DNA of 64,000 bases from Eledone cirrhosa (lineage: Eukaryota), in contig OZ024741.1 in NCBI GenBank assembly GCA_964016885.1, forward strand, positions 320,292,001-320,356,000. The letters run 5' to 3'. Below are positions 24,646 through 59,120 of this stretch, piece after piece. The position numbers were made by a program, and so were the translations under genes. Numbering within the stretch: the stretch's first letter is position 1; each line of letters begins with the position of its first letter. Under the pieces are notes generated by a model. The model did no database searches, was not told where the DNA came from, and was given only the letters and a program-made list of their open reading frames with translations.

Positions 24646-24741
<96 letters not shown>

Positions 24742-25286
24742 GTATATATATATTTTAAATCGACAGTAATCGGATTTATGTATGGTTTTAATTCTTCAGA
24801 GGACAAGGAAAACATACAAAAAAGATAAGTTTTTGTGCTTTGACGCAATTATTTTGAAGTATATTTTACATATATTACCGTTTTGAACATGTTTATTTTC
24901 ACTGTATGATTCATTCATAGGAGACAACACATACACGTGCTTTCTATTTTTGTTTGTCTACCATACAGAGCATTTTTGTTTAACTTAAGCAGATCTTGTA
25001 TTAATTTTGATTTTTCTGAGTAACATAATTTAATTTGATATAATCTTGTTTGATTTTGTATAATCTTATCTGTATTTGACCCGATTTCGTTGTTTCTTGT
25101 ATGATATGCTGATATTGCAATAACTTCGTGTATTTGTAAACAGACATTTACATCGTGTTTCTATATCTCTATGTTTCCGGTTTCTTCCATTCATTAATTT
25201 AAATTTAAATTTAAAAATTTATTTTTGTATTTGTGAACTGCTGTTGCTCACGTTCTCACGCTGTCTCTATCTCTCTCCTTCCTTCC

Positions 25287-25332
<46 letters not shown>

Positions 25333-25397
25333 TCTCTCTCTCTCCCCCTCTCTCTCGATCAACGAGCTCTCTTTCTCCCTCTCTCTAGATCAACGAG

Positions 25398-25443
<46 letters not shown>

Positions 25444-25645
25444 TCTCTCTCCCTCTGACCCCCCCGACTCTTCCCGCTATCTCTCTCGCTCCCCTCTTCT
25501 GTCTCCCCCTTTTCTTTTCTTTTCTTCTGTTTCTCTTTCTTTTTCTCTCGCTGGAGTTATATCTCTATCTCCCTCCCTCACTCTGTCCCTCTCTAACCTC
25601 TACCCTACACCTCCCACTGTCTCTCTTTCTCCCCTCCACAGCGAA

Positions 25646-26599
25646 ATGGACTGCATGCAGGAAAAAAGTGAAATCAGGAGTCAGCGAAACTGGTCGAAGA
25701 TTGAACTAGCGGTTTTGATCAAGGGGTGGACTATGGCTGATGGGTCTCCACCAAGCAAAAAGATGGCGGAGAACCTGAAGAGCCATGGGTTTCTGAGGAC
25801 CCTGGTACAGATAGAGAGAAAGAGAAAAGAAATTGAGAAGGCGTATGTCCTCATAGCGCCTCATATGGCGATGCTAAGCCGTGTCCTCAGGGAGGAGAAA
25901 ACCGAAGGGAGGGATGAGGAGAAGGAGAGGGAAAAGGAAGAGGAAAAAGAGGGGGAAAAGGAAAAGGAGGAGAGCACAAGCACGGACCTGAAAGAAAATG
26001 ATATACCCTCCGCTACAGGCAGGGAGGGCAGGCCGGGCAACCAACAAGCTAAGGGCAAAGGTGAAAAGCGAAATCACCTTCCGAAGGAGAACCAAGCGCA
26101 GAGGGACCAGTGGACAACTGTTCAAAGAAAGAACAGAAAGCACCGAGACACTGGGAGCAAAAAAACCCAAGTAATGTGCAAGTTTTTCAAGAACGGGACA
26201 TGCTGGCATGGAGAGACAGGGATGGGATGCAGATTCGCCCACCCTAGGTCTCAAACGAACTATGCCCATCATACTCGCGCAACATGCCCCAGCCTAAGCC
26301 GAAATAAGCCGCTCCAGAAGTATGCTGATGTCGCGCGTGCTGCACCAACAAGGAGAAGGCACGCACATGCCGACGAGATACAGATGGCAGCAGCAGATCA
26401 GAAAATTTTTTTAGTGATGGCAGAGAAGATTGTGGGACAGCTGACCTGGCTGCATCGTCTCCAGAGCCAGGGTCATCCACACCAGCACTCGAGACCACCG
26501 CAGTTAAGGGACCCAGAGTGGCCGCCGCTGACACCAGACCAGGTGTCATACCGACAGCCATTACTGGCACCCCAAAAGTCACACCAGTGCTGCTGCTGA
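25646..26599 (+). CDS. LINE ORF1, 317 aa: Myb/SANT-like N-terminal region, acidic linker, CCCH zinc finger
   Basis: First ATG at 25646 (upstream in-frame part is a (TC)n tract). WSKIELAVLIKGW...LKSHGFLRTLVQIERKRKEIEKAY and CKFFKNGTCWHGETGMGCRFAH. Confidence 0.75.
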   Translation: MDCMQEKSEIRSQRNWSKIELAVLIKGWTMADGSPPSKKMAENLKSHGFLRTLVQIERKRKEIEKAYVLIAPHMAMLSRVLREEKTEGRDEEKEREKEEEKEGEKEKEESTSTDLKENDIPSATGREGRPGNQQAKGKGEKRNHLPKENQAQRDQWTTVQRKNRKHRDTGSKKTQVMCKFFKNGTCWHGETGMGCRFAHPRSQTNYAHHTRATCPSLSRNKPLQKYADVARAAPTRRRHAHADEIQMAAADQKIFLVMAEKIVGQLTWLHRLQSQGHPHQHSRPPQLRDPEWPPLTPDQVSYRQPLLAPQKSHQCCC

Positions 26600-29559
26600 A
26601 TGTCAGGGGCCTGGTGAAACTCAGCAACATGAGTAAAATTTCCTACCTGGGAGACTTAGCCATAAGCAATCAAGCACTATGCATGGCACTAACCGAAACG
26701 CACCTGACAAGCAGTATAGCAGATGCAGAAATACATATACCGAAATATACTGTATTTCGTTCGGACAGGAAGGAGAGAACTCATGGTGGGGTTGCTCTGT
26801 ATATCCGTGAAGATGTCACACCAATTGTACTGTTGACACATTCAAACTCAGTCTGTGACACACTGATAATACATATGAAGCAACTACAGACGGTAATATG
26901 TGTCACATATCGGCCGCCCGATGCCTCCAGTCATGAGGGTAAATTTGAGGATAGCCTAAGTAGGATAGAAGAGGTCCTTGACAAACTGGACCAGGGTCTC
27001 AACATCCTACTGCTGGGAGACTTCAACCTACCAAAGGTCAAATGGCCTGAGGGCCACCTCCTCCCTGGAATGACGTCAATAGAACAGAGACAGACGGAAT
27101 CCCTGCTGGCCCTCACACACGGGCTGTTCATGGAGCAAGCAATACTCCTCCCAACAAGAGGCGAAAATGTCCTGGACCTCTGTTTTACAAACAACGAAGT
27201 GCTCATCCACAATGTAAAGGTGACACCAACAATTCTCTCGGATCATAACTTGGTAGAGCTAATGATATGTGGTCCAAGAGAACCAACAGAGACAAAACCA
27301 CCAAGAAGCTCCGGGACGCTATCCAGCCTTAACTTCTACGGGGCTGACTGGAAGAAGATTAAGAGTGAAATCCGGAAGCAAACATGGAGTGCAAACATCG
27401 CCACACAAGACACTAACACACAATTTCAACACTTCATGACAACGATACACACCGTATGCAAAAAGTGTGTCCCGGAGAAAGATGCAAACAGACACAAAAA
27501 TCTTATTCCCAGAGATAGGAAAATCCTTATGAGACGTAGAACTAAACTCTCAAACCAGTTGAATAGTCAACAAAACCAAAACAAGAAGGAATCCTATTTG
27601 AAACGTGCACTACTTGACACCGAGATTGCACTCAAGCTTTCACATGAGAATGAGAGGGCAAGGAAAGAGAACAGGGCCATAGAAAACATTAAAACAAACC
27701 CTAAGGCCTTCTTTAAATTTGCAAAAGAAACTGCCTCAGTACACTGCAAGATTGGACCACTCTTCCACACGGACGGTTCATTAACCGAAAATCCCCAAGA
27801 GATATGTGAAATACTGAACGAACAGTACAAAAGTGTCTTCACATGTCCACTGAGGCACATGCAAATAACGAAGCCAGAGGAGTTCTTTGATGCCACAACA
27901 CTACATCAAGCAATGGCAACCATCAACCACATAGACATAACGGAAGAGGATGTGGTGTACGCCATTGATGAAATTAGAACAGACTCGGCTGCTGGACCTG
28001 ATGGATTCCCAGCAGTTCTCCTAAAAATATGTAAGCGGGCCTTAGCAACTCCACTGAAGATGCTCTTCAGAAGCTCCTTGGCTAGCGGTGTACTACCCAG
28101 GGAGCTGAAAGAAGGCACAATATGCCCTATCCATAAAGGAGGTAGTAGAGCGGAGGCCAATAACTATAGGCCAGTCTCCCTGACGTCGCATATCAGTAAG
28201 GTCATGGAGCGAGTCGTCAGAAAGAAACTAATCACTTTCCTCGAAGAAAATGACCGCCTGACTAGCACGCAACATGGCTTCCGCCCAGGAAGAAGCTGCC
28301 TTACACAGCTGCTACATCACTACGACTGGGTACTGAGACAGCTACTAGACAGCTCACATGTAGACGTGATATATCTTGACTTTGCGAAGGCCTTTGACAA
28401 GGTCGACCACGGAATGATATGTCACAAACTACACGGACTCGGCATAACTGGAAAAGTAGGTGAGTGGCTGCATGGCTTCCTGAGGGACAGAAGCCAGGCA
28501 GTCGCAGCAAATGGGGCCCTCTCGAGGGAAACACCGATAACAAGTGGGGTGCCTCAGGGGACAGTCCTGGGACCACTACTGTTTTTGGTGGCTCTCTCGG
28601 ACATGCACTCTGTGGTGCATGCAACAACATCCCTCACTAGCTATGCTGATGACACTAAGGTAGCACAGGCAATCAAAAACCCGGCTGACGCTGCCCTCTT
28701 ACAGCAGGATCTGGATGCCATATACAGATGGGCGGAAGAAAACAACATGCAGTTTAATGCTGGAAAATTCCAAGCCCTACAATACAAACCTGCAAACACA
28801 AACACAAATATAGCGGAACACAGCTACACAGGACCAGGAGGGACCGATATCCCCGTGTCAAAATCGATACGAGACCTGGGCATAGACATGAGCGATGATG
28901 CATCTTTTTCTTCACACATCATGAAGGTGGCGACAGCATGTAGACGATTCGCTGGCTGGATCTTGAGGACTTTCCTTACAAGAGATCGAGACACCATGTT
29001 GACACTGTGGAGGACTTTTGTCCTAAGCCGCCTGGACTACTGCTCCCAGCTGTGGTCACCCCATAGTGTCAAACTAACCACAGAGCTTGAGGCAATCCAG
29101 CGAAGCTACACCAAGAGGATTGCCAAGATGAGGGAGACAAGCTACTGGGAGAGGCTGAAGGAACTGAACCTCTACTCCTTGGAGCGAAGACGGGAGAGAT
29201 ACGCAGTGATCTACATGTGGAAAATCCTGGAGGGACTAGCACCAAACTTTGGCATTGGGAGCTGGACCAACCGTCGAACAGGACGTCACTGTGTGGTGCC
29301 AAAGGTCCCGTCTTCCACATCTAGAATAAGGAGCAGGTATTGCAATAGCCTGGGATTCAAGGGCCCTCAACTCTTCAACAGGCTGCCGAGGCATCTGCGA
29401 GACTTGCATGACGTGGAGGTGGATGTCTTTAAGAAACATCTCGACACCTTGTTATCCAGGATCCCGGATGAGCCCACAGCAAGACACGAGGGAAACCTAA
29501 GGGCAGCAGCAACAAACTCCCTCCTACACCAGTGGCCAACCTATACAGGCTGGAGATAA
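26518..29559 (+). CDS. LINE ORF2, APE endonuclease + reverse transcriptase, uninterrupted (true start uncertain; frame open from 26329)
   Basis: [26 protein letters not shown] (APE); [51 protein letters not shown] (RT). Confidence 0.95.
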
Positions 29560-29633
29560 AATGTGTAGCAACAAGGGCGGTGCCCCAGCATGGCCTCAGC
29601 CGGATGGCTGAAACAGGTAAAAGAGTAAAAGAG

Positions 29634-33375
<3,742 letters not shown>

Positions 33376-36920: not shown

Positions 36921-38801
36921 AGCGGCGATGAATTAGTTTAGCGAGGTTTATTATATGAAATCGTGTGTCGAAACAAATATTGTTATACTTGGGTAGGGTC
37001 ATATTTGTGTCAGCATCGGCGTCAGCATAGCTGGTGATGTTGCCAACCTTTTCATGGTATGGTGGGAAAGGAGACTTAAAGATCTCCTTAATGAAAGCTC
37101 CATAGACCTCATCATGTACTCTCGTTATGTAGACGATATCAATATAGTTATAAGAACACCCCCACTAGAGAGCACTAACAAGTTTGAATTAGAACGTAGC
37201 CCGATGGAAAGCATCCAGCAGATAGCTAATTCCATACACCAGAGTATAACTGTAACTATCGACTTCCCTTCCAAACACCCTAACAATAGACTACCTGTAT
37301 TAGACACGGAACTCTCGATTAACACTATAGACGAGAGAGCCCAAATTCTCCACTCACACTATGCTAAACCCATGGCCTCCAAATACCTGATACTCAAAAA
37401 CTCAGCAATGTCCAGTAGTGCTAAGTTTAATATTCTGATCGCAGATTTGGTACGAGTGATGAAGAATGTGTCCAGCATGTGCGACCCAACAGAAATGGAA
37501 AGACACATCCAACACTTCATCAACCGCATGCAGTTCTCTGGCTACAACCAAAGAGACAGAGTTAGAGCATACGAAGGAGCCATGGAAAAGTATAAGACCC
37601 TCATAAAACTGGACATGAAAGGAATTTGCCCATTATACAGGAGCAAATCATGGAATAGCTTAGATAGGGCTAGACATAAGATAGGGAAGGCCACATTATG
37701 GTACGACAACCAGAGATATCAGAGTGTCATGTTTGTGGACGCCACCCCTGGAGGGAAATTATCTAACCAGTGTAGAAAGGCCCTGAGAAAGAACTACTTA
37801 AAAATAAAGGTGGTAGAAAAGCCAGGAACCACCATAAAATCCCTGATCAGCAAAACCTACCCCTTTAAGAAAACCCACTGTACCAATAGGAAATGTATCA
37901 TATGTAAGGTGAACCCCCGGATAAACTGTAAAACTAGAAACGTAGTCTATAGCATAAGATGTACAGAGGGTACTTGCAGAAACATGACAACAACATACAT
38001 AGGCGAAACAGCTCGTAGCATAGGTGAAAGGATAGACCAACACTGGGGCGAACTAAAAGGACGAAAAAACGGGTCAGTACTATACGAACATGCTAGACAA
38101 CAACATGACGGTAACATAGACAACATAGAAATTAGAATAATATCTAAACATAGGAATGACCCAGCAGATAGGCAAATCAGAGAGGCCAGTGAAATAGAAA
38201 TTAGAAGACCAAAGCTAAACAGAAAGAATGAGTGGAACAACAACAACACCCAAACAAACAATACTGACCTAAGAGAAGTATAAATAAGTAAATAAAATAA
38301 AATAAAATAAGATAAATAAATACATACACAAGCACAATAACAACAAGCACATAAACACACACTAGTCACCCAGCAGACACAACACTATACACACTAGTCA
38401 CACAGCAAACGTAACACTATACACACACGCAAACGCATGCGCAAAGAAGACAAAATAAAATAAACAAACAAGCAAATAAATAAATAAATATATAGACAGA
38501 CTGAATAAAAAATGGCGTAGACATACAACACAACAGGAGGAAAAAATATAACACCACTGACGATGTTGCAGATGTGCAACGAAAGATTTATGTAAATTAT
38601 GTAAACTATATATATGTGTTTGTGTCTATATTGTATCTGTATTATTTTTGACCGTCGGTCAGTCAATGGCAACATTGAGGACCGAGTAAGTTAGATCGCA
38701 GATATAAAAGACAGCGAGAAGCGAAAACCAACCAAACAGTGAGTGTGTTCTGTTATTAATTCTGGCAATATTACACAAATATGACCATCCCCAAGTATAA
38801 C
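36920..38801 (+). mobile_element. 5'-truncated Penelope-like element family B with inverted terminal segment at its 5' end
   Basis: 36983-37010 is the reverse complement (1-2 mismatches) of the 3' end 38773-38800. RT/GIY-YIG ORF in between; HHR motif at 38557-38584; (TA)n flanks. Confidence 0.9.
37015..38283 (+). CDS. PLE RT (from motif B) + Cys-rich linker + GIY-YIG endonuclease, 5'-truncated but open
   Basis: IGVSIAGDVANLFM, RYVDDI, LPVLDT, CTNRKCIIC..C, NVVYSIRC..C..TYIGETARSIGERIDQH, EH..H, REASEI, LNRKNEW. Confidence 0.9.
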   Translation: MGVSIAGDVANLFMVWWERRLKDLLNESSIDLIMYSRYVDDINIVIRTPPLESTNKFELERSPMESIQQIANSIHQSITVTIDFPSKHPNNRLPVLDTELSINTIDERAQILHSHYAKPMASKYLILKNSAMSSSAKFNILIADLVRVMKNVSSMCDPTEMERHIQHFINRMQFSGYNQRDRVRAYEGAMEKYKTLIKLDMKGICPLYRSKSWNSLDRARHKIGKATLWYDNQRYQSVMFVDATPGGKLSNQCRKALRKNYLKIKVVEKPGTTIKSLISKTYPFKKTHCTNRKCIICKVNPRINCKTRNVVYSIRCTEGTCRNMTTTYIGETARSIGERIDQHWGELKGRKNGSVLYEHARQQHDGNIDNIEIRIISKHRNDPADRQIREASEIEIRRPKLNRKNEWNNNNTQTNNTDLREV

Positions 38802-41670: not shown

Positions 41671-41905
41671 CAAATATATATATATTTATAAAACCATATT
41701 TATTTTATTATACATATTTGGTTGCTCTTGAAATATGTATAATAAAAATAAATATGGTTTTATAAATATAGTTTCCATTTATTAATATATTGTGTATTTA
41801 CTCCACTGAACGGTTGAGTGCTTTATATCAGTTATAAAAATGTTTAAGCTTGTTGAATCCCAACAAATTAAATATAACCTCTGCATATATATATATATAT
41901 ATATA

Positions 41906-44414
41906 GACACATTTAATAACTTGCAGGACACATTTAATAACTTGCCCAGCCATGACATCAAACTACTGATCGGTGATTTCAATGCTCAGATTGGCTGGAA
42001 CAGACAGGGACTGGAACAGGTCACTGGGCCATTCGTTTCCGCTGCAGTCACCACAGACAACGGCGAGAGACTGCAGCTGGTTTGTGCCATCAACAGCTTG
42101 TGCATTAGCAACACCTATTTCAAACACAAGGCTACCTGGCAGTCTCCGGACCAGAAAATCCGAAACGAGATCGACTACATCTGTATCAACCAGCGCTGGC
42201 GGTCCTCGGTACGTGACGTCAGAGTGTACCGAGGTGCGGACGTGGACTCAGACCATCACCTACTGTGTGCGGAACTTCATCTGCGCCTGAAGAACGGACA
42301 CGACAGAAAAGACCAAAGCCATATGTAGTGGAGAAACTGAAGTTTCCCGGTCAAGCGCGACTGTACCAACTGGCGCTACAAAACCGACTCCAACAGTTGA
42401 GTGAGGCTGCAGATCTGGAAGATCAATGGACGATGTTCACGACAGCGGTGACTGAGGCAGCACAAGAAACTATTGGCCGAAGACGAGCAACGAGGAGGGA
42501 AAAATGGATCCAAGAACCAACGTGGGACCTAATTGACTGAAGAAAAAACCCAAAAGTCGAGCGAGATTCTTCCAGATCGGAGGAAGACCAAAAGAAAAGA
42601 GATGCCGTATACCGCCAAATCGACCGACTGGTAAAGCGAAGCTGCTGGCGGGACAAACGTGACTGGCTGGAGAAAAAGGGTTCTGAGGCAGAGGAAGCTG
42701 CTGGTCGAAACGATACAAAAGCACTGTTCCGCATCGTGAGGGAGTTGACAGGAATGTCGAGCGGTGCCAGCATGCCAGTGAAGGACAAAAATGGCTAGAC
42801 GTTGACCACTGGAGTGGAACAGGAGCGGAGGTGGATGGAGCACTTCCGGGAGACGCTGAACCAACCAAATCCGGTCGCCCTGATAGACATGACCGCAGAG
42901 ACTCCAGCAACCACTGAGGTACTCAAGCGCGGACCATATCACCAAGCAAGAGACGAGAGAGCGATTCGCCACTTGAGGAACGGCAAAGCAGGCGGACTGG
43001 ATGAGATCTCTGCTGAGCTGCTCAAATTCGGTGAGGAGAGCACGATAACAGCGTTGACAGACTTGATGAACCACTGCTGGAGGGTTGGTCGGGTTCCCCT
43101 AGAATGGCAGCGCGGTGTCATCGTCAAACTGCTGAAGAAGGGAAACCTGACAGACTGCAATAACTGGCGTGGTATCACATTGCTGTCAGTCCCAGGCAAG
43201 GCGTTCTGCACTGTGCTGCCGCGTCGACTCCGGCAGGCTGTCGACTCTGTGCTCCGGGAGGAACAAGCCGGCTTCCGAAAAAATCGATCTTGCATGGAAC
43301 AGATCTTTACACTACGCAACATTCTCGAACAATAGGTTGAGCTACAACAGCCTTAGGCGGTCAATTTTATTGATTTCCAGAAGGCATTCGAGAGTGTACG
43401 CCAGGAGTCGCTGTGGAATATTGCGCAACTGTACGGCATTCCTGCAAGATACATCACCATTTTCAAGGCCCTGTATGAAAACTCCAGCTGCTGCGTGCGG
43501 AATAAATCCGGTGTGACGTAGTTCTTTGACATTGTCTCCGGAGTCAGACAGGGTTGCATTCTCTCTCCGCTGTTGTTCCTGCTGGCAGCCGATTTCGTAG
43601 TAAGGCGAATGGATGAAGGACTCGGTCGAGGAATCCCAGTCGAGGCCGTGGGACCTGGCATTCGCCGATGACTTCGCTTTGATCGCTGAAAACAGTGCAG
43701 ATCTGCAGGCCCTAACAACATGCCTACAAGAGAGTGCGGAAATGATCGGTCTGAGAATCAACACCAAAAAGACCAAGGTCATGAGAACAGCCAGCAACTC
43801 GGGGAAGATGATCACTTCACCTATCTAGGCAGCATCCTGACAAGCAGCGGCGACGCGGAGCTCGACATCAACTGTTGGATCAGCAAAGGAGCCGCAGTTT
43901 TCCAGCGGCTGTGCCCAGTCTGGTCGTCATCATGCATTAGCTCCAAGACCAAGCTCCGCCTGTACAAGAGCATCGTGTTGCCGACAGTGCTTTATGCGAG
44001 CGAGACCTGGAAGAGTACGGCAAAAATAGAGAGACGGCTGAACACTTTCCACCAGTGGTGCCTGCAAAAGATCCTTCGTGTGTCCTGGCACGACCGAGTG
44101 GGAAACGAGGAGATCCTGCGGAGAGCCGAGTCGTGGACGCTACAGAGAGTGGTCACGGAGCGTCGGTGCCGTCTGGCTGGCCATATTCTGCGTCTTCCAA
44201 ATGAACGACATTCGAAAACAGCGATGAACTGGACTTCGCCTGGCGGTAAACGGAGGCAGGTTTGCCCAAGGATCACCTGACGATGAGCGTTCCGGAAGGA
44301 CCTGATGGCAGTCAACATCACCTGGCACGGTCTCGAAAAAATTGCCGCTGATCGTAACCGTTGGCGAGTACTTACTGTTCGATGCGCCGAACGGAGCGGA
44401 AGAATCTAAGACTA

Positions 44415-56315: not shown

Positions 56316-57311
56316 CTATCCGTTAGGGTATAACGTGGGGCTGTAATACAGGAAAGTTTTGTGCAATTTATGTTTACAAGCCGAAATTGCCTCAGATTTT
56401 TTGTTTAAGATGTGGTCTGTGGCGTAGAGTATTTCCAGGGCCTCAGCGGCGCAGAGGTCACATGGTCTTTTATTTCCGTTATACGATCTAGCCCTAGCTA
56501 GGAACTCCCAGTGTAACTTATATTGGGTGTGGTTGTCTTTTAGACTCCAGATATAAGCTGAAAGTGACGTCATATTCCTTCTTAGAGGGTAACGAAAAGA
56601 ATGGGTATGCATGTAAAGACGCTGCTTGAAACTATTGGCGGTTAACTCTATGTAAGCCCTACGGGACGTGGGTGTTACAACCTTACATTTGTAGACAATG
56701 TTACTAGAGAGGCATTTCCCGGATAGGGGGCAATCAGCCCGATTCCTACAATTACAGTTAGTACTAACTACAGGGTTGCACGTGTTCCTACGGATAGGTA
56801 GTTTAGCTAAATTTGAAGCTGTGATGTTATGTGCAAGGTTAGGAGTCGTAGAGTAAGAAATTTTAATAGTATTTCTATTAAAAATTTTACTATATTTATG
56901 TGTAGGGGGAAAATGCTTCGTAATAAGGGAAAGAAAGATCTTAGCTAATGGTGTGGCCACCTCCATATTATATGGTGGGTTAAACCAACAAATGCGACGG
57001 GATCTATTTTTTCTAGGTCTATTTTCATACTCTGTATATGCTACCTTATCGACAAATCCACTTCGAGCAAGAGCTTCATTGTAATAAGTGGAATGGTCGT
57101 TGAAAATGCGCTCGTTGGTGGAAAGACGGGAAAGCCTCAACGAAACGTTTCTTACCAGGTTCTTGGTTATGCTGGCAGGATGGTTGGAATGCTTACTTAT
57201 GTAATTAAGCGTATCATTCGGCTTTCTATACGGGTAATACAACCCATTCAATAAATTGAGGGTAACGTCGAGGTAATTATGTAGTAGTTGATGGTAAGTA
57301 CTGCGCTCCAC
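56316..57311 (-). pseudogene. PLE family A ORF, internally deleted copy (RT thumb + CxC linker + GIY-YIG)
   Basis: ERSTYHQLLHN fused directly to YLDVTLN; RT motifs A-C absent. Confidence 0.85.
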
Positions 57312-57357
57312 TTTATATAGGTTGCCAGTACTGCGCTCAACTTGATACCTATATCAA

Positions 57358-59120
57358 GTGGAGCGCAGTACTTACCATCAACTACTACATAATGCTGTAA
57401 CTAAGGATTACCGTAAAACTAATCGGTGCGTCATCAATGAAATCAACGATGCTGGGTTTAAAATCACATCTGATCTCAACATCCTGGACCGGACCGAACC
57501 TCTGGACCCTATCTCTCCCCACTTTACCCTGAAGGATCACAAATCCAATTTTCCGAACAACCCCTCTATTCGGCTTATTAACCCTACGAAGTCCGATTTA
57601 GGTAGACTTAGTAAAACGATTCTTGATAGAATTATACCTGAAATTAGAAGTTTGGCCCCTCTCGCACTGTGGAACAATTCTTTCGCGGTGATTGATTGGT
57701 TCAACGGCATATGTAACAAGGAACATTGCCGTTTTATCCAATTCGACATCAACAATTACTACTCCTCCATCACATTACCACTTCTCCTCAGAGCTATCAA
57801 TTTCGCTAAAACACTCACAGTGGTTAAGGATTTTGAAGTTGATGTCATCCTTAATGCCCGAGAGTCGGTGATTAATTTCGACGTCTCTATTTGGATTAAA
57901 AAACCAATAGTACCCCATTCGACGTGAGTATGGGCGCCAGTGACTCTGCGGAGGTTACTGATCTTATTGGCCTTTTCCTTCTTTTCTCTATCAAGGACGA
58001 ATTCCCCAACGCGGGTGGTGGTTTGTACCGTGACGATGGTCTTTTGATCATGACTAAGTGCGGACCTCGTGCTTGCGACAGGTTCAGAAAAGAACTCACA
58101 GCCTTCTTTAAAGGCTTCAACCTCTCTATACAGGTTGAGGCCAATCTCTCGGTCGTTAATTACCTCGACGTTACCCTCAATTTATTGAATGGGTTGTATT
58201 ACCCGTATAGAAAGCCGAATGATTCGCTTAATTACATAAGTAAGCATTCCAACCATCCTGCCAGCATAACCAAGAACCTGGTAAGAAACATTTCGTTGAG
58301 GCTTTCCCGTCTTTCCACCAACGAGCGCATTTTCAACGACCATTCCACTTATTACAATGAAGCTCTTGCTCGAAGTGGATTTGTCGATAAGGTAGCATAT
58401 ACAGAGTATGAAAATAGACCTAGAAGAAATAGATCCCGTCGCATTTGTTTGTTTAACCCACCATATAATATGGAGGTGGCCACACCATTAACTAAGATCT
58501 TTCTTTCCCTTATTACGAAGCATTTTCCCCCTACACATAAATATAGTAAAATTTTTAATAGAAATACTATTAAAATTTCTTACTCTACGACTCCTAACCT
58601 TGCACATAACATCACAGCTTCAAATTTAGCTAAACTACCTAGCCGTAGGAACACGTGCAACCCTGTAGTTAGTACTAACTGTAATTGTAGGAATCGGGCT
58701 GATTGCCCCCTATCCGGGAAATGCCTCTCTAGTAACATTGTCTACAAATGTAAGGTTGTAACACCCACGTCCCGTAGGGCTTACATAGAGTTAACCGCCA
58801 ATAATTTCAAGCAGCGTCTTTACATGCATACCCATTCTTTTCGTTACCCTCTAAGAAGGAATATGACGTCACTTTCAGCTTATATCTGGAGTCTAAAAGA
58901 CAACCACACCCAATATAAGTTACACTGGGAGATCCTAGCTAGGGCTAGATCGTATAATGGAAATAAAAGACCATGTGACCTCTGCGCCGCTGAGGCCCTG
59001 GAAATACTCTACGCCACAGACCACATCTTAAACAAAAAATCTGAGGCAATTTCGGCTTGTAAACATAAATTGCACAAAACTTTCCTGTATTACAGCCCCA
59101 CGTTATACCCTAACGGATAG
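57358..59120 (+). CDS. PLE family A RT + GIY-YIG endonuclease, 5'-truncated, one frameshift near 57900
   Basis: FIQFDINNYYSSI, MGASDSAEVTDLIG, GGLYRDDGL, NYLDVTLN, CNCRNRADCPLSGKCL, IVYKC..YIELT..FKQRLYMH, CDLC, LNKKSE..CKH. Confidence 0.9.

Follow-up and report, generated by a model that had tools for sequence, protein, structure and literature searches.

How a retrotransposon with two overlapping reading frames makes its enzyme, when the second frame has no adequate start of its own, is the question raised by a long interspersed nuclear element (LINE) of the CR1 group in the cephalopod Eledone cirrhosa. The element lies in a 64,000-nucleotide (nt) stretch of assembly GCA_964016885.1 (contig OZ024741.1, positions 320,292,001 to 320,356,000, forward strand), hereafter the window, whose numbering is used throughout. 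Its second open reading frame (ORF2), which encodes an APE-type endonuclease and a reverse transcriptase (RT), stands in the -1 frame relative to ORF1 and is open over 26329-29559, as a sequence-only reading of the window had stated. That reading also proposed a -1 shift of the gag-pol kind, and the conserved in-phase heptamer and the open frame described below support it: the element probably makes its endonuclease-RT by programmed -1 ribosomal frameshifting at U_UUU_UUA, as an ORF1-ORF2 fusion of ~1304 residues. The in-phase heptamer, the open -1 frame and the lack of an ATG ahead of an active-site residue of the endonuclease are real and conserved.

The heptamer T TTT TTA (26407-26413) is in phase with ORF1 (ATT TTT TTA, within K-I-F-L) and is the only in-phase heptamer of the XXXYYYZ type in that frame. 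Downstream of it the -1 frame is open, and a slip computed at this site yields a transframe product of 1304 amino acids (aa) with the junction ..QKIFL/SDGREDCG.., so that the phase, the length and the junction given by the sequence-only reading were all reproduced by translation. The heptamer is kept in 32 of the 32 closest copies that cover the site, 28 of which read AAT TTT TTA. Across the genome, 309 of 328 copies with exact flanks have the same length as the window copy, 3 have one base more and 16 one base fewer; the -1 register is therefore the family norm, and siblings with an eighth T, in which the two frames would form a single ORF, are not. A homopolymer error, or a family with a single ORF, was ruled out by the retention of the heptamer together with these lengths. 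Near-identical contigs covering the site, present in three of four public sequencing runs (three organisms), show no indel at the heptamer. Among L031-L034, whose open frames are longer than the norm, and L035, three copies are 5'-truncated before the site and two retain the heptamer. A search of Rfam with 26300-26700 matched no frameshift element and returned 3 weak, unrelated hits.

Searches of the same genome (with P0001, P0003 and a degenerate pattern) recovered only older layers of this family, down to ~78% DNA identity. The heptamer is intact in 68 of 86 copies, where the preceding codon is AAT in 50, ATT in 8, CAT in 7 and AGT, GAT or TCT in one each; the amino acid before Phe-Leu is free (Asn, Ile, His, Ser, Asp) and the third base of its codon stays T. 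In the 23 copies below 95% identity, shared changes create -1 stops at four places, all of them 5' of the heptamer (among them 26374 in 8 copies and 26404 in 6), and in three older copies (L087, L090 and L092) a -1 stop immediately precedes it. Between the heptamer and the endonuclease the 23 copies have 0 stops among 24 shared changes, too few for significance alone. The overlap 5' of the heptamer is thus unconstrained, and the working overlap is ~190 nt counted from 26407 rather than the ~270 nt proposed earlier.

As had been read from the sequence, the first ATG of the ORF2 frame (26629) lies downstream of the endonuclease motif LLLNVRGL, and the ATG that follows the ORF1 stop (26600) is in the ORF1 frame, where it opens 5 codons (26600-26617). 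The Asn codon of the motif (26599-26601) is ten codons before ATG 26629, overlaps the ORF1 stop (26597-99), and its residue is invariant in 10/10 aligned relatives. When a profile of the endonuclease was compared with PDB, this residue aligned to Asn14 of the L1 endonuclease (1VYB, E 2.6e-11); phmmer with the single endonuclease sequence against PDB gave nothing relevant. Asn14 is described, in the accessible part of PMC8565326, as a conserved, water-coordinating residue of the active site, so that a start at ATG 26629 would drop the strand that carries the invariant active-site Asn.

More distant relatives were collected in a metagenome scan from which the best 80 loci were kept; 38 of these had no endonuclease start, 3 ran off the contig end and 4 had no ORF1 of 150 aa, and 35 were scored together with the window element. 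A search of viral contigs gave 0 loci. In each of the four most similar scored loci (L095-L098; best-segment identity 37-45%) ORF2 is in -1 and an in-phase T TTT TTA follows the stop from which the -1 frame opens, at distances of 9, 9, 3 and 9 nt, respectively; this frame is open from the heptamer to the endonuclease in all four, in agreement with what the sequence-only reading expected of intact relatives. They share no other sequence around the heptamer, which stands at x-F-L where a helix-like segment opens, with a Q/P-rich tail behind it; in -1 they encode a T/S/P/A-rich linker of ~75-140 aa. Over all 36 elements, ORF2 is in -1 in 23 (overlapping ORF1 in 22), in frame in 9 and in +1 in 4, and the overlaps are skewed towards -1 (22 vs 4 in +1, P 5e-4). 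A perfect in-phase heptamer was found in 18/22 elements with a -1 overlap (17/21 minus the window element), of seven kinds (UUUUUUA, AAAAAAC, GGGAAAC, UUUAAAC, AAAAAAA, AAAAAAU and CCCUUUA), and two of the four elements that miss one carry G_GAA_AAC. Among 13 controls with ORF2 in frame 0 or +1, an in-phase heptamer falls within the final 80 ORF1 codons of two.

These counts were compared with a null in which synonymous codons were resampled with each element's own usage, the ORF1 amino acids being kept (4000 draws). This null expects 5.6 heptamers against the 18/22 observed (P about 1e-11, ignoring shared descent), and the background density elsewhere in the same ORFs gives an expectation of 4.5. 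For single elements P was 0.005 for the window element and 0.039, 0.255, 0.081 and 0.118 for L095-L098 (multiplied, ~1e-4). The -1 frame stays open in 37-310 of the 4000 draws for L095-L098; conditioning the null on an open -1 frame left 0-16 accepted draws for several loci, and the unconditioned null is the one quoted. The heptamer is therefore conserved beyond what the protein requires, in 4/4 closest relatives and in 18/22 against 5.6 expected, figures that are not fully corrected for relatedness. That different heptamers occupy different ORF1 positions on different branches argues for several independent choices. A by-product of the conserved Phe-Leu pair, with ORF2 translated from the internal AUG at 26629 or by internal entry, is very improbable: the pair is indeed conserved at the protein level and a gap of 11 nt separates the end of the five-codon frame from ATG 26629, but the codon-resampling null opposes this explanation, initiation at 26629 removes the invariant Asn, and that Met is absent in the homologous proteins P0004-P0006.

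The same comparison bears on slippage of RNA polymerase, by which one base added to the A5-T6 run in some transcripts would fuse ORF1 to ORF2. The common form of the site is indeed five A followed by six T, and the run has changed length in 19/328 genomic copies; yet a long run is lacking from the G_GGA_AAC and U_UUA_AAC sites of relatives, and 18/22 elements have their site in ribosomal phase. Polymerase slippage is the least probable of the explanations considered here.

The principal alternative to a frameshift, itself unlikely, is termination-reinitiation, in which ribosomes would terminate on the ORF1 UGA (26597-99) and resume at a near-cognate GUG or CUG located 1-10 nt upstream. Translation of this kind has been published for SART1, as coupling, and for L1, as an AUG-independent restart, according to the accessible parts of PMC3708506, PMC3894237 and PMC2881922, and GTG CTG CTG CTG stands in the ORF2 frame at 26587-26598. 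The overlapping stop-AUG of the SART1 type is absent from the ORF2 frame, where CUG and GUG are the only candidates. Reinitiation would leave unexplained both the in-phase heptamer placed where the -1 frame opens and the 190-410 nt over which the -1 frame is open ahead of the endonuclease; in L106, L114, L120 and L122 the ORF1 stop lies 100-240 nt ahead of that domain, and the Leu-Asn codons within the endonuclease motif account for a stop at +4.

Several observations weigh against frameshifting at the heptamer. The ORF1 stop lies -14 to +4 nt from the endonuclease start in 5/5 members of the clade, a placement that is also compatible with reinitiation, and the CUG and GUG codons adjoin this point in the window element. 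An AUG precedes the endonuclease in frame in 9 of the 22 elements with a -1 overlap, L098 included (12 have none, and in 1 it stands at the endonuclease start), and the predicted start of P0004 coincides with the last base of the heptamer. L124 and L122 overlap in -1 without a canonical site, and among contigs from other organisms a diverged family has T TTT TTG at the site, while a pair of low depth lacks the heptamer. The Phe-Leu pair starts a conserved ORF1 helix, and A-K-N-L is a protein motif in other lineages; part of each heptamer is therefore fixed by the needs of the protein, for which the null allows, as it does not for shared descent. Within the genome, the heptamer is intact in 14/29 copies below 97% identity against 54/57 above; when the first 100 entries in the list of 309 exact-flank copies were counted by eye, 75 had it intact. 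Finally, the 70 nt after the heptamer fold no better than controls (mean z -0.37 for 18 elements vs -0.27 for 35 control windows; z +0.37 for the window element).

The commonest break of the heptamer is a T-to-G change. The ten such copies examined (88 to 99% identity) form no clade in the family tree, which fits repeated decay after insertion. A propagating sub-lineage without the heptamer was considered and rejected, the ten copies being scattered over the tree with no other site in common. The change recurs independently in at least 10 siblings at the position of window 26408, the second T of the A5-T6 run, and may mark a mutation hotspot.

A downstream stimulator had been proposed as an H-type pseudoknot or a long stem-loop. 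The pseudoknot is unsupported: its 4-bp stem 1 loses a pair in 5/23 older copies, no pair shows a two-sided change, and the fold is not better than shuffled sequence, folding having been done without a pseudoknot-aware method. The stem-loop, a candidate stimulator, is the fold of minimum free energy (MFE) for 26414-26500; z is +0.44 for this segment and -1.05 for the hairpin alone, and the spacing is 17 nt where 5-9 nt is usual. Its pairs are kept in 19-23 of the 23 older copies, with one-sided changes only, so that the stem covariation suggested as a check was not found. Fair local hairpins occur in L096, L103, L106 and L120, that of L096 having 7 bp at 7 nt (z -1.36). In the absence of a strong structure after the site, low shifting efficiency is predicted, and this would suit an element that needs ORF1 protein in bulk and the enzyme in small amounts.

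Under programmed -1 frameshifting, ribosomes would start at ORF1 and most would finish its 317 aa, while a minority would shift by -1 on Phe255-Leu256 and go on to translate the T/S/P/A-rich linker, the endonuclease and the RT. The resulting protein, ORF1(1-256)-linker-APE-RT, would keep the N-terminal helices and the zinc finger, and the linker would replace most of the C-terminal helix of ORF1 and its Q/P tail. Pfam matches on ORF1 are both below the Pfam cut-off (zf-CCCH, E 0.024; Myb/SANT-like, E 0.088), and C178, C186, C195 and H199 of the finger are invariant in 4/4 homologues. An AlphaFold2 model of ORF1 (4 sequences) has a pLDDT (predicted local distance difference test) of 54 and a pTM (predicted template modelling score) of 0.25 overall, with aa 251-270 at 68-78; the C-terminal helix carries the conserved motif FLxMA[EQ][KR]IV[GR]QLTWLH. 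The shift site falls in the first half of this predicted helix, most of which the fusion would consequently lose. Comparable linkers were found in P0004, P0005, P0022 and L095-L098. The clade also includes two relatives, P0030 and P0025 (known as proteins only), in which ORF1-like fingers are fused to APE-RT in a single ORF, which makes the fused layout plausible. The features of the window element are collected in Table 1.

Table 1. Coordinates of the LINE copy and its features in the window.
Feature	Position	Strand	Remarks
CR1-group LINE copy	24752..29636	+	~4.9 kb, slightly 5'-truncated; between (AT)n tracts
ORF1	25646..26599	+	317 aa; helical N-terminus, acidic/basic linker, CCCH finger, C-terminal helix, Q/P-rich tail
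CCCH-type zinc finger of ORF1	26177..26248	+	weak Pfam hit, aa 178-201
ORF2 frame, stop to stop	26329..29559	+	1076 codons; -1 relative to ORF1
Predicted C-terminal helix of ORF1	26369..26467	+	aa 242-274; AlphaFold2, low confidence
Slippery heptamer U_UUU_UUA, candidate -1 frameshift site	26407..26413	+	third base of codon 254, Phe255, Leu256
-1 frame linker, T/S/P/A-rich	26413..26586	+	shift site to endonuclease; dual-coding with ORF1 tail
Predicted hairpin, candidate stimulator	26431..26481	+	MFE -19.6 kcal/mol; 17 nt after heptamer
APE endonuclease domain	26587..27246	+	Pfam
Reverse transcriptase domain of ORF2	28129..28782	+	RVT_1, E 2.2e-29
3' tail	29617..29636	+	2.5 copies of an 8-bp unit, after two small hairpins

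The copy belongs to a young and large family, with 853 first-look candidates and 40/40 scored DNA matches at ~100% over 501 nt; sibling copies extend at least 40 nt upstream of 24752, which shows the 5' truncation of the window copy. Its assignment to the CR1 group is based on ORF2, where Pfam finds APE followed by RVT_1 only (neither RNase H nor a restriction-like endonuclease), on a short tandem 3' repeat in place of poly(A), and on the presence of 5'-truncated copies. The nearest named ORF1 homologues are labelled Octopus vulgaris, which makes an octopod the probable host, and bird CR1-type proteins are among the homologue matches of the element. A quick RT tree (46/49 rows kept, L096 being too short for placement) joins the window element, L095, L097, L098 and homologues of other invertebrates in one clade (SH-aLRT 99), placed beside a clade with bird CR1-type proteins; the tree is midpoint-rooted and holds no named L2, Jockey, RTE or L1 references.

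A long CT-rich tract of variable length occupies 25276-25640 in the 5' untranslated region, before the ORF1 ATG. The (AT)n tracts (24651-24751 and from 29636 onward) also adjoin several 5'-truncated siblings, and a short repeat at 29690-29960 is likewise found next to several sibling copies. Elsewhere in the window, 41810-44280 holds a second, broken LINE with APE, RT and DUF6451 fragments and 30% identity to ORF2. Penelope-like ORFs were recognized by eye at 56316-59120, 31865-32536 and 36997-38283 from the C-terminal part of an RT and GIY-YIG-like motifs, with no Pfam hit at 0.01; 56316-59120 holds two near-identical copies in opposite orientation.

Beyond this clade, a broken bird-type CR1 fragment (L121, 687-812), scored as frame 0, has T TTA AAC TAG in the true ORF1 frame and ORF2 in -1. 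In the related L106, ORF1 also ends in T TTA AAC plus a stop, with ORF2 in -1. Seven further relatives (L107, L111, L129, L136, L140, L141 and L146) have ORF1 and ORF2 in one frame with a single stop between them and no Met before the endonuclease. This stop is followed by C in 6/7 (TGA-C in four, TAG-CAA in two) against 10/60 other stops (Fisher P 5e-4), a context that appears readthrough-like. In L125, L126, L138 and L162 ORF2 overlaps in +1, and L138 and L162 group with the in-frame-stop elements in the tree. We lean, with less assurance than for the window element, towards the view that CR1-group LINEs generally make their enzyme as an ORF1-ORF2 fusion by recoding, mostly by -1 shifts at independently chosen heptamers and in one lineage by stop readthrough.

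CR1-group LINEs are one of the largest transposon groups of animals. The 1990s descriptions of CR1 and T1 elements may already have proposed a shift from the overlap of the ORFs. We found no literature on -1 frameshifting in CR1-group elements in a search that covered few subscription papers, and the word 'frameshift' is absent from the main text of PMC13343379, PMC4120745, PMC4316615, PMC3708506, PMC3894237, PMC2881922 and PMC9115989. The translation of LINE ORF2 is treated as an open question in the accessible parts of two reviews (PMC3894237, PMC3708506), and those of PMC5009743 discuss frameshifting in the gag of HeT-A, reinitiation for mammalian LINEs and shifty heptamers. The locus most likely represents a known mechanism, working without a strong stimulator, in a LINE group for which we found no report of it. 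The tested LINE cases (L1, SART1) use reinitiation, and the conserved in-phase slip site is the likely answer for the window element. If so, a large LINE group would have arrived at the retroviral way of balancing structural protein against enzyme, and the N-terminus predicted for CR1 enzymes would change. It would also be explained why so many ORF2 proteins predicted in this clade start within the endonuclease, and there would be a natural series of frameshift sites working with little downstream structure. Should recoding hold across the CR1 group, ORF2 'proteins' annotated from their first ATG would be artefactually truncated, and fusion would tether the enzyme to the ORF1 particle.

The suggestion that frameshifting is unheard of in LINEs was too strong, since, according to a figure legend of PMC5911963, ORF2 of the Dictyostelium elements TRE5-A and TRE3-A depends on a -1 frameshift. 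Like the window element they are APE-type LINEs, but they are amoebal and target tRNA genes. Paramecium LINEs of groups 1-3, for which a +1 shift or readthrough is suggested from consensus sequences in the accessible part of PMC5405496, belong to a ciliate clade and differ in shifting by +1 or remaining in frame, with no -1 heptamer. The likeness to HIV-1 gag-pol is closer in the site itself (the same U_UUU_UUA, in the same phase, between a structural ORF and an enzyme ORF in -1 without a usable start, as outlined in parts of PMC5009743); in contrast, the window element is a non-LTR (long terminal repeat) element with APE and RT, and has no protease to cut the fusion and no strong hairpin at the usual short spacer. 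Vertebrate CR1 of the bird type (P0057/P0061, L121) shares the APE-RT ORF2 and the 8-bp 3' repeat, the latter noted for CR1 in the accessible part of PMC4316615, whereas the window lineage forms a separate RT clade, has an ORF1 of the CCCH/PHD type, and shows a long overlap in place of a heptamer plus stop. SART1 and human L1, as far as the cited parts of the literature describe them, are bicistronic APE-type LINEs with the same difficulty in expressing ORF2; their ORF2 protein is a separate product, made from a stop-start site or downstream of a spacer, whereas ORF2 of the window element overlaps ORF1 in -1 with a conserved slip site.

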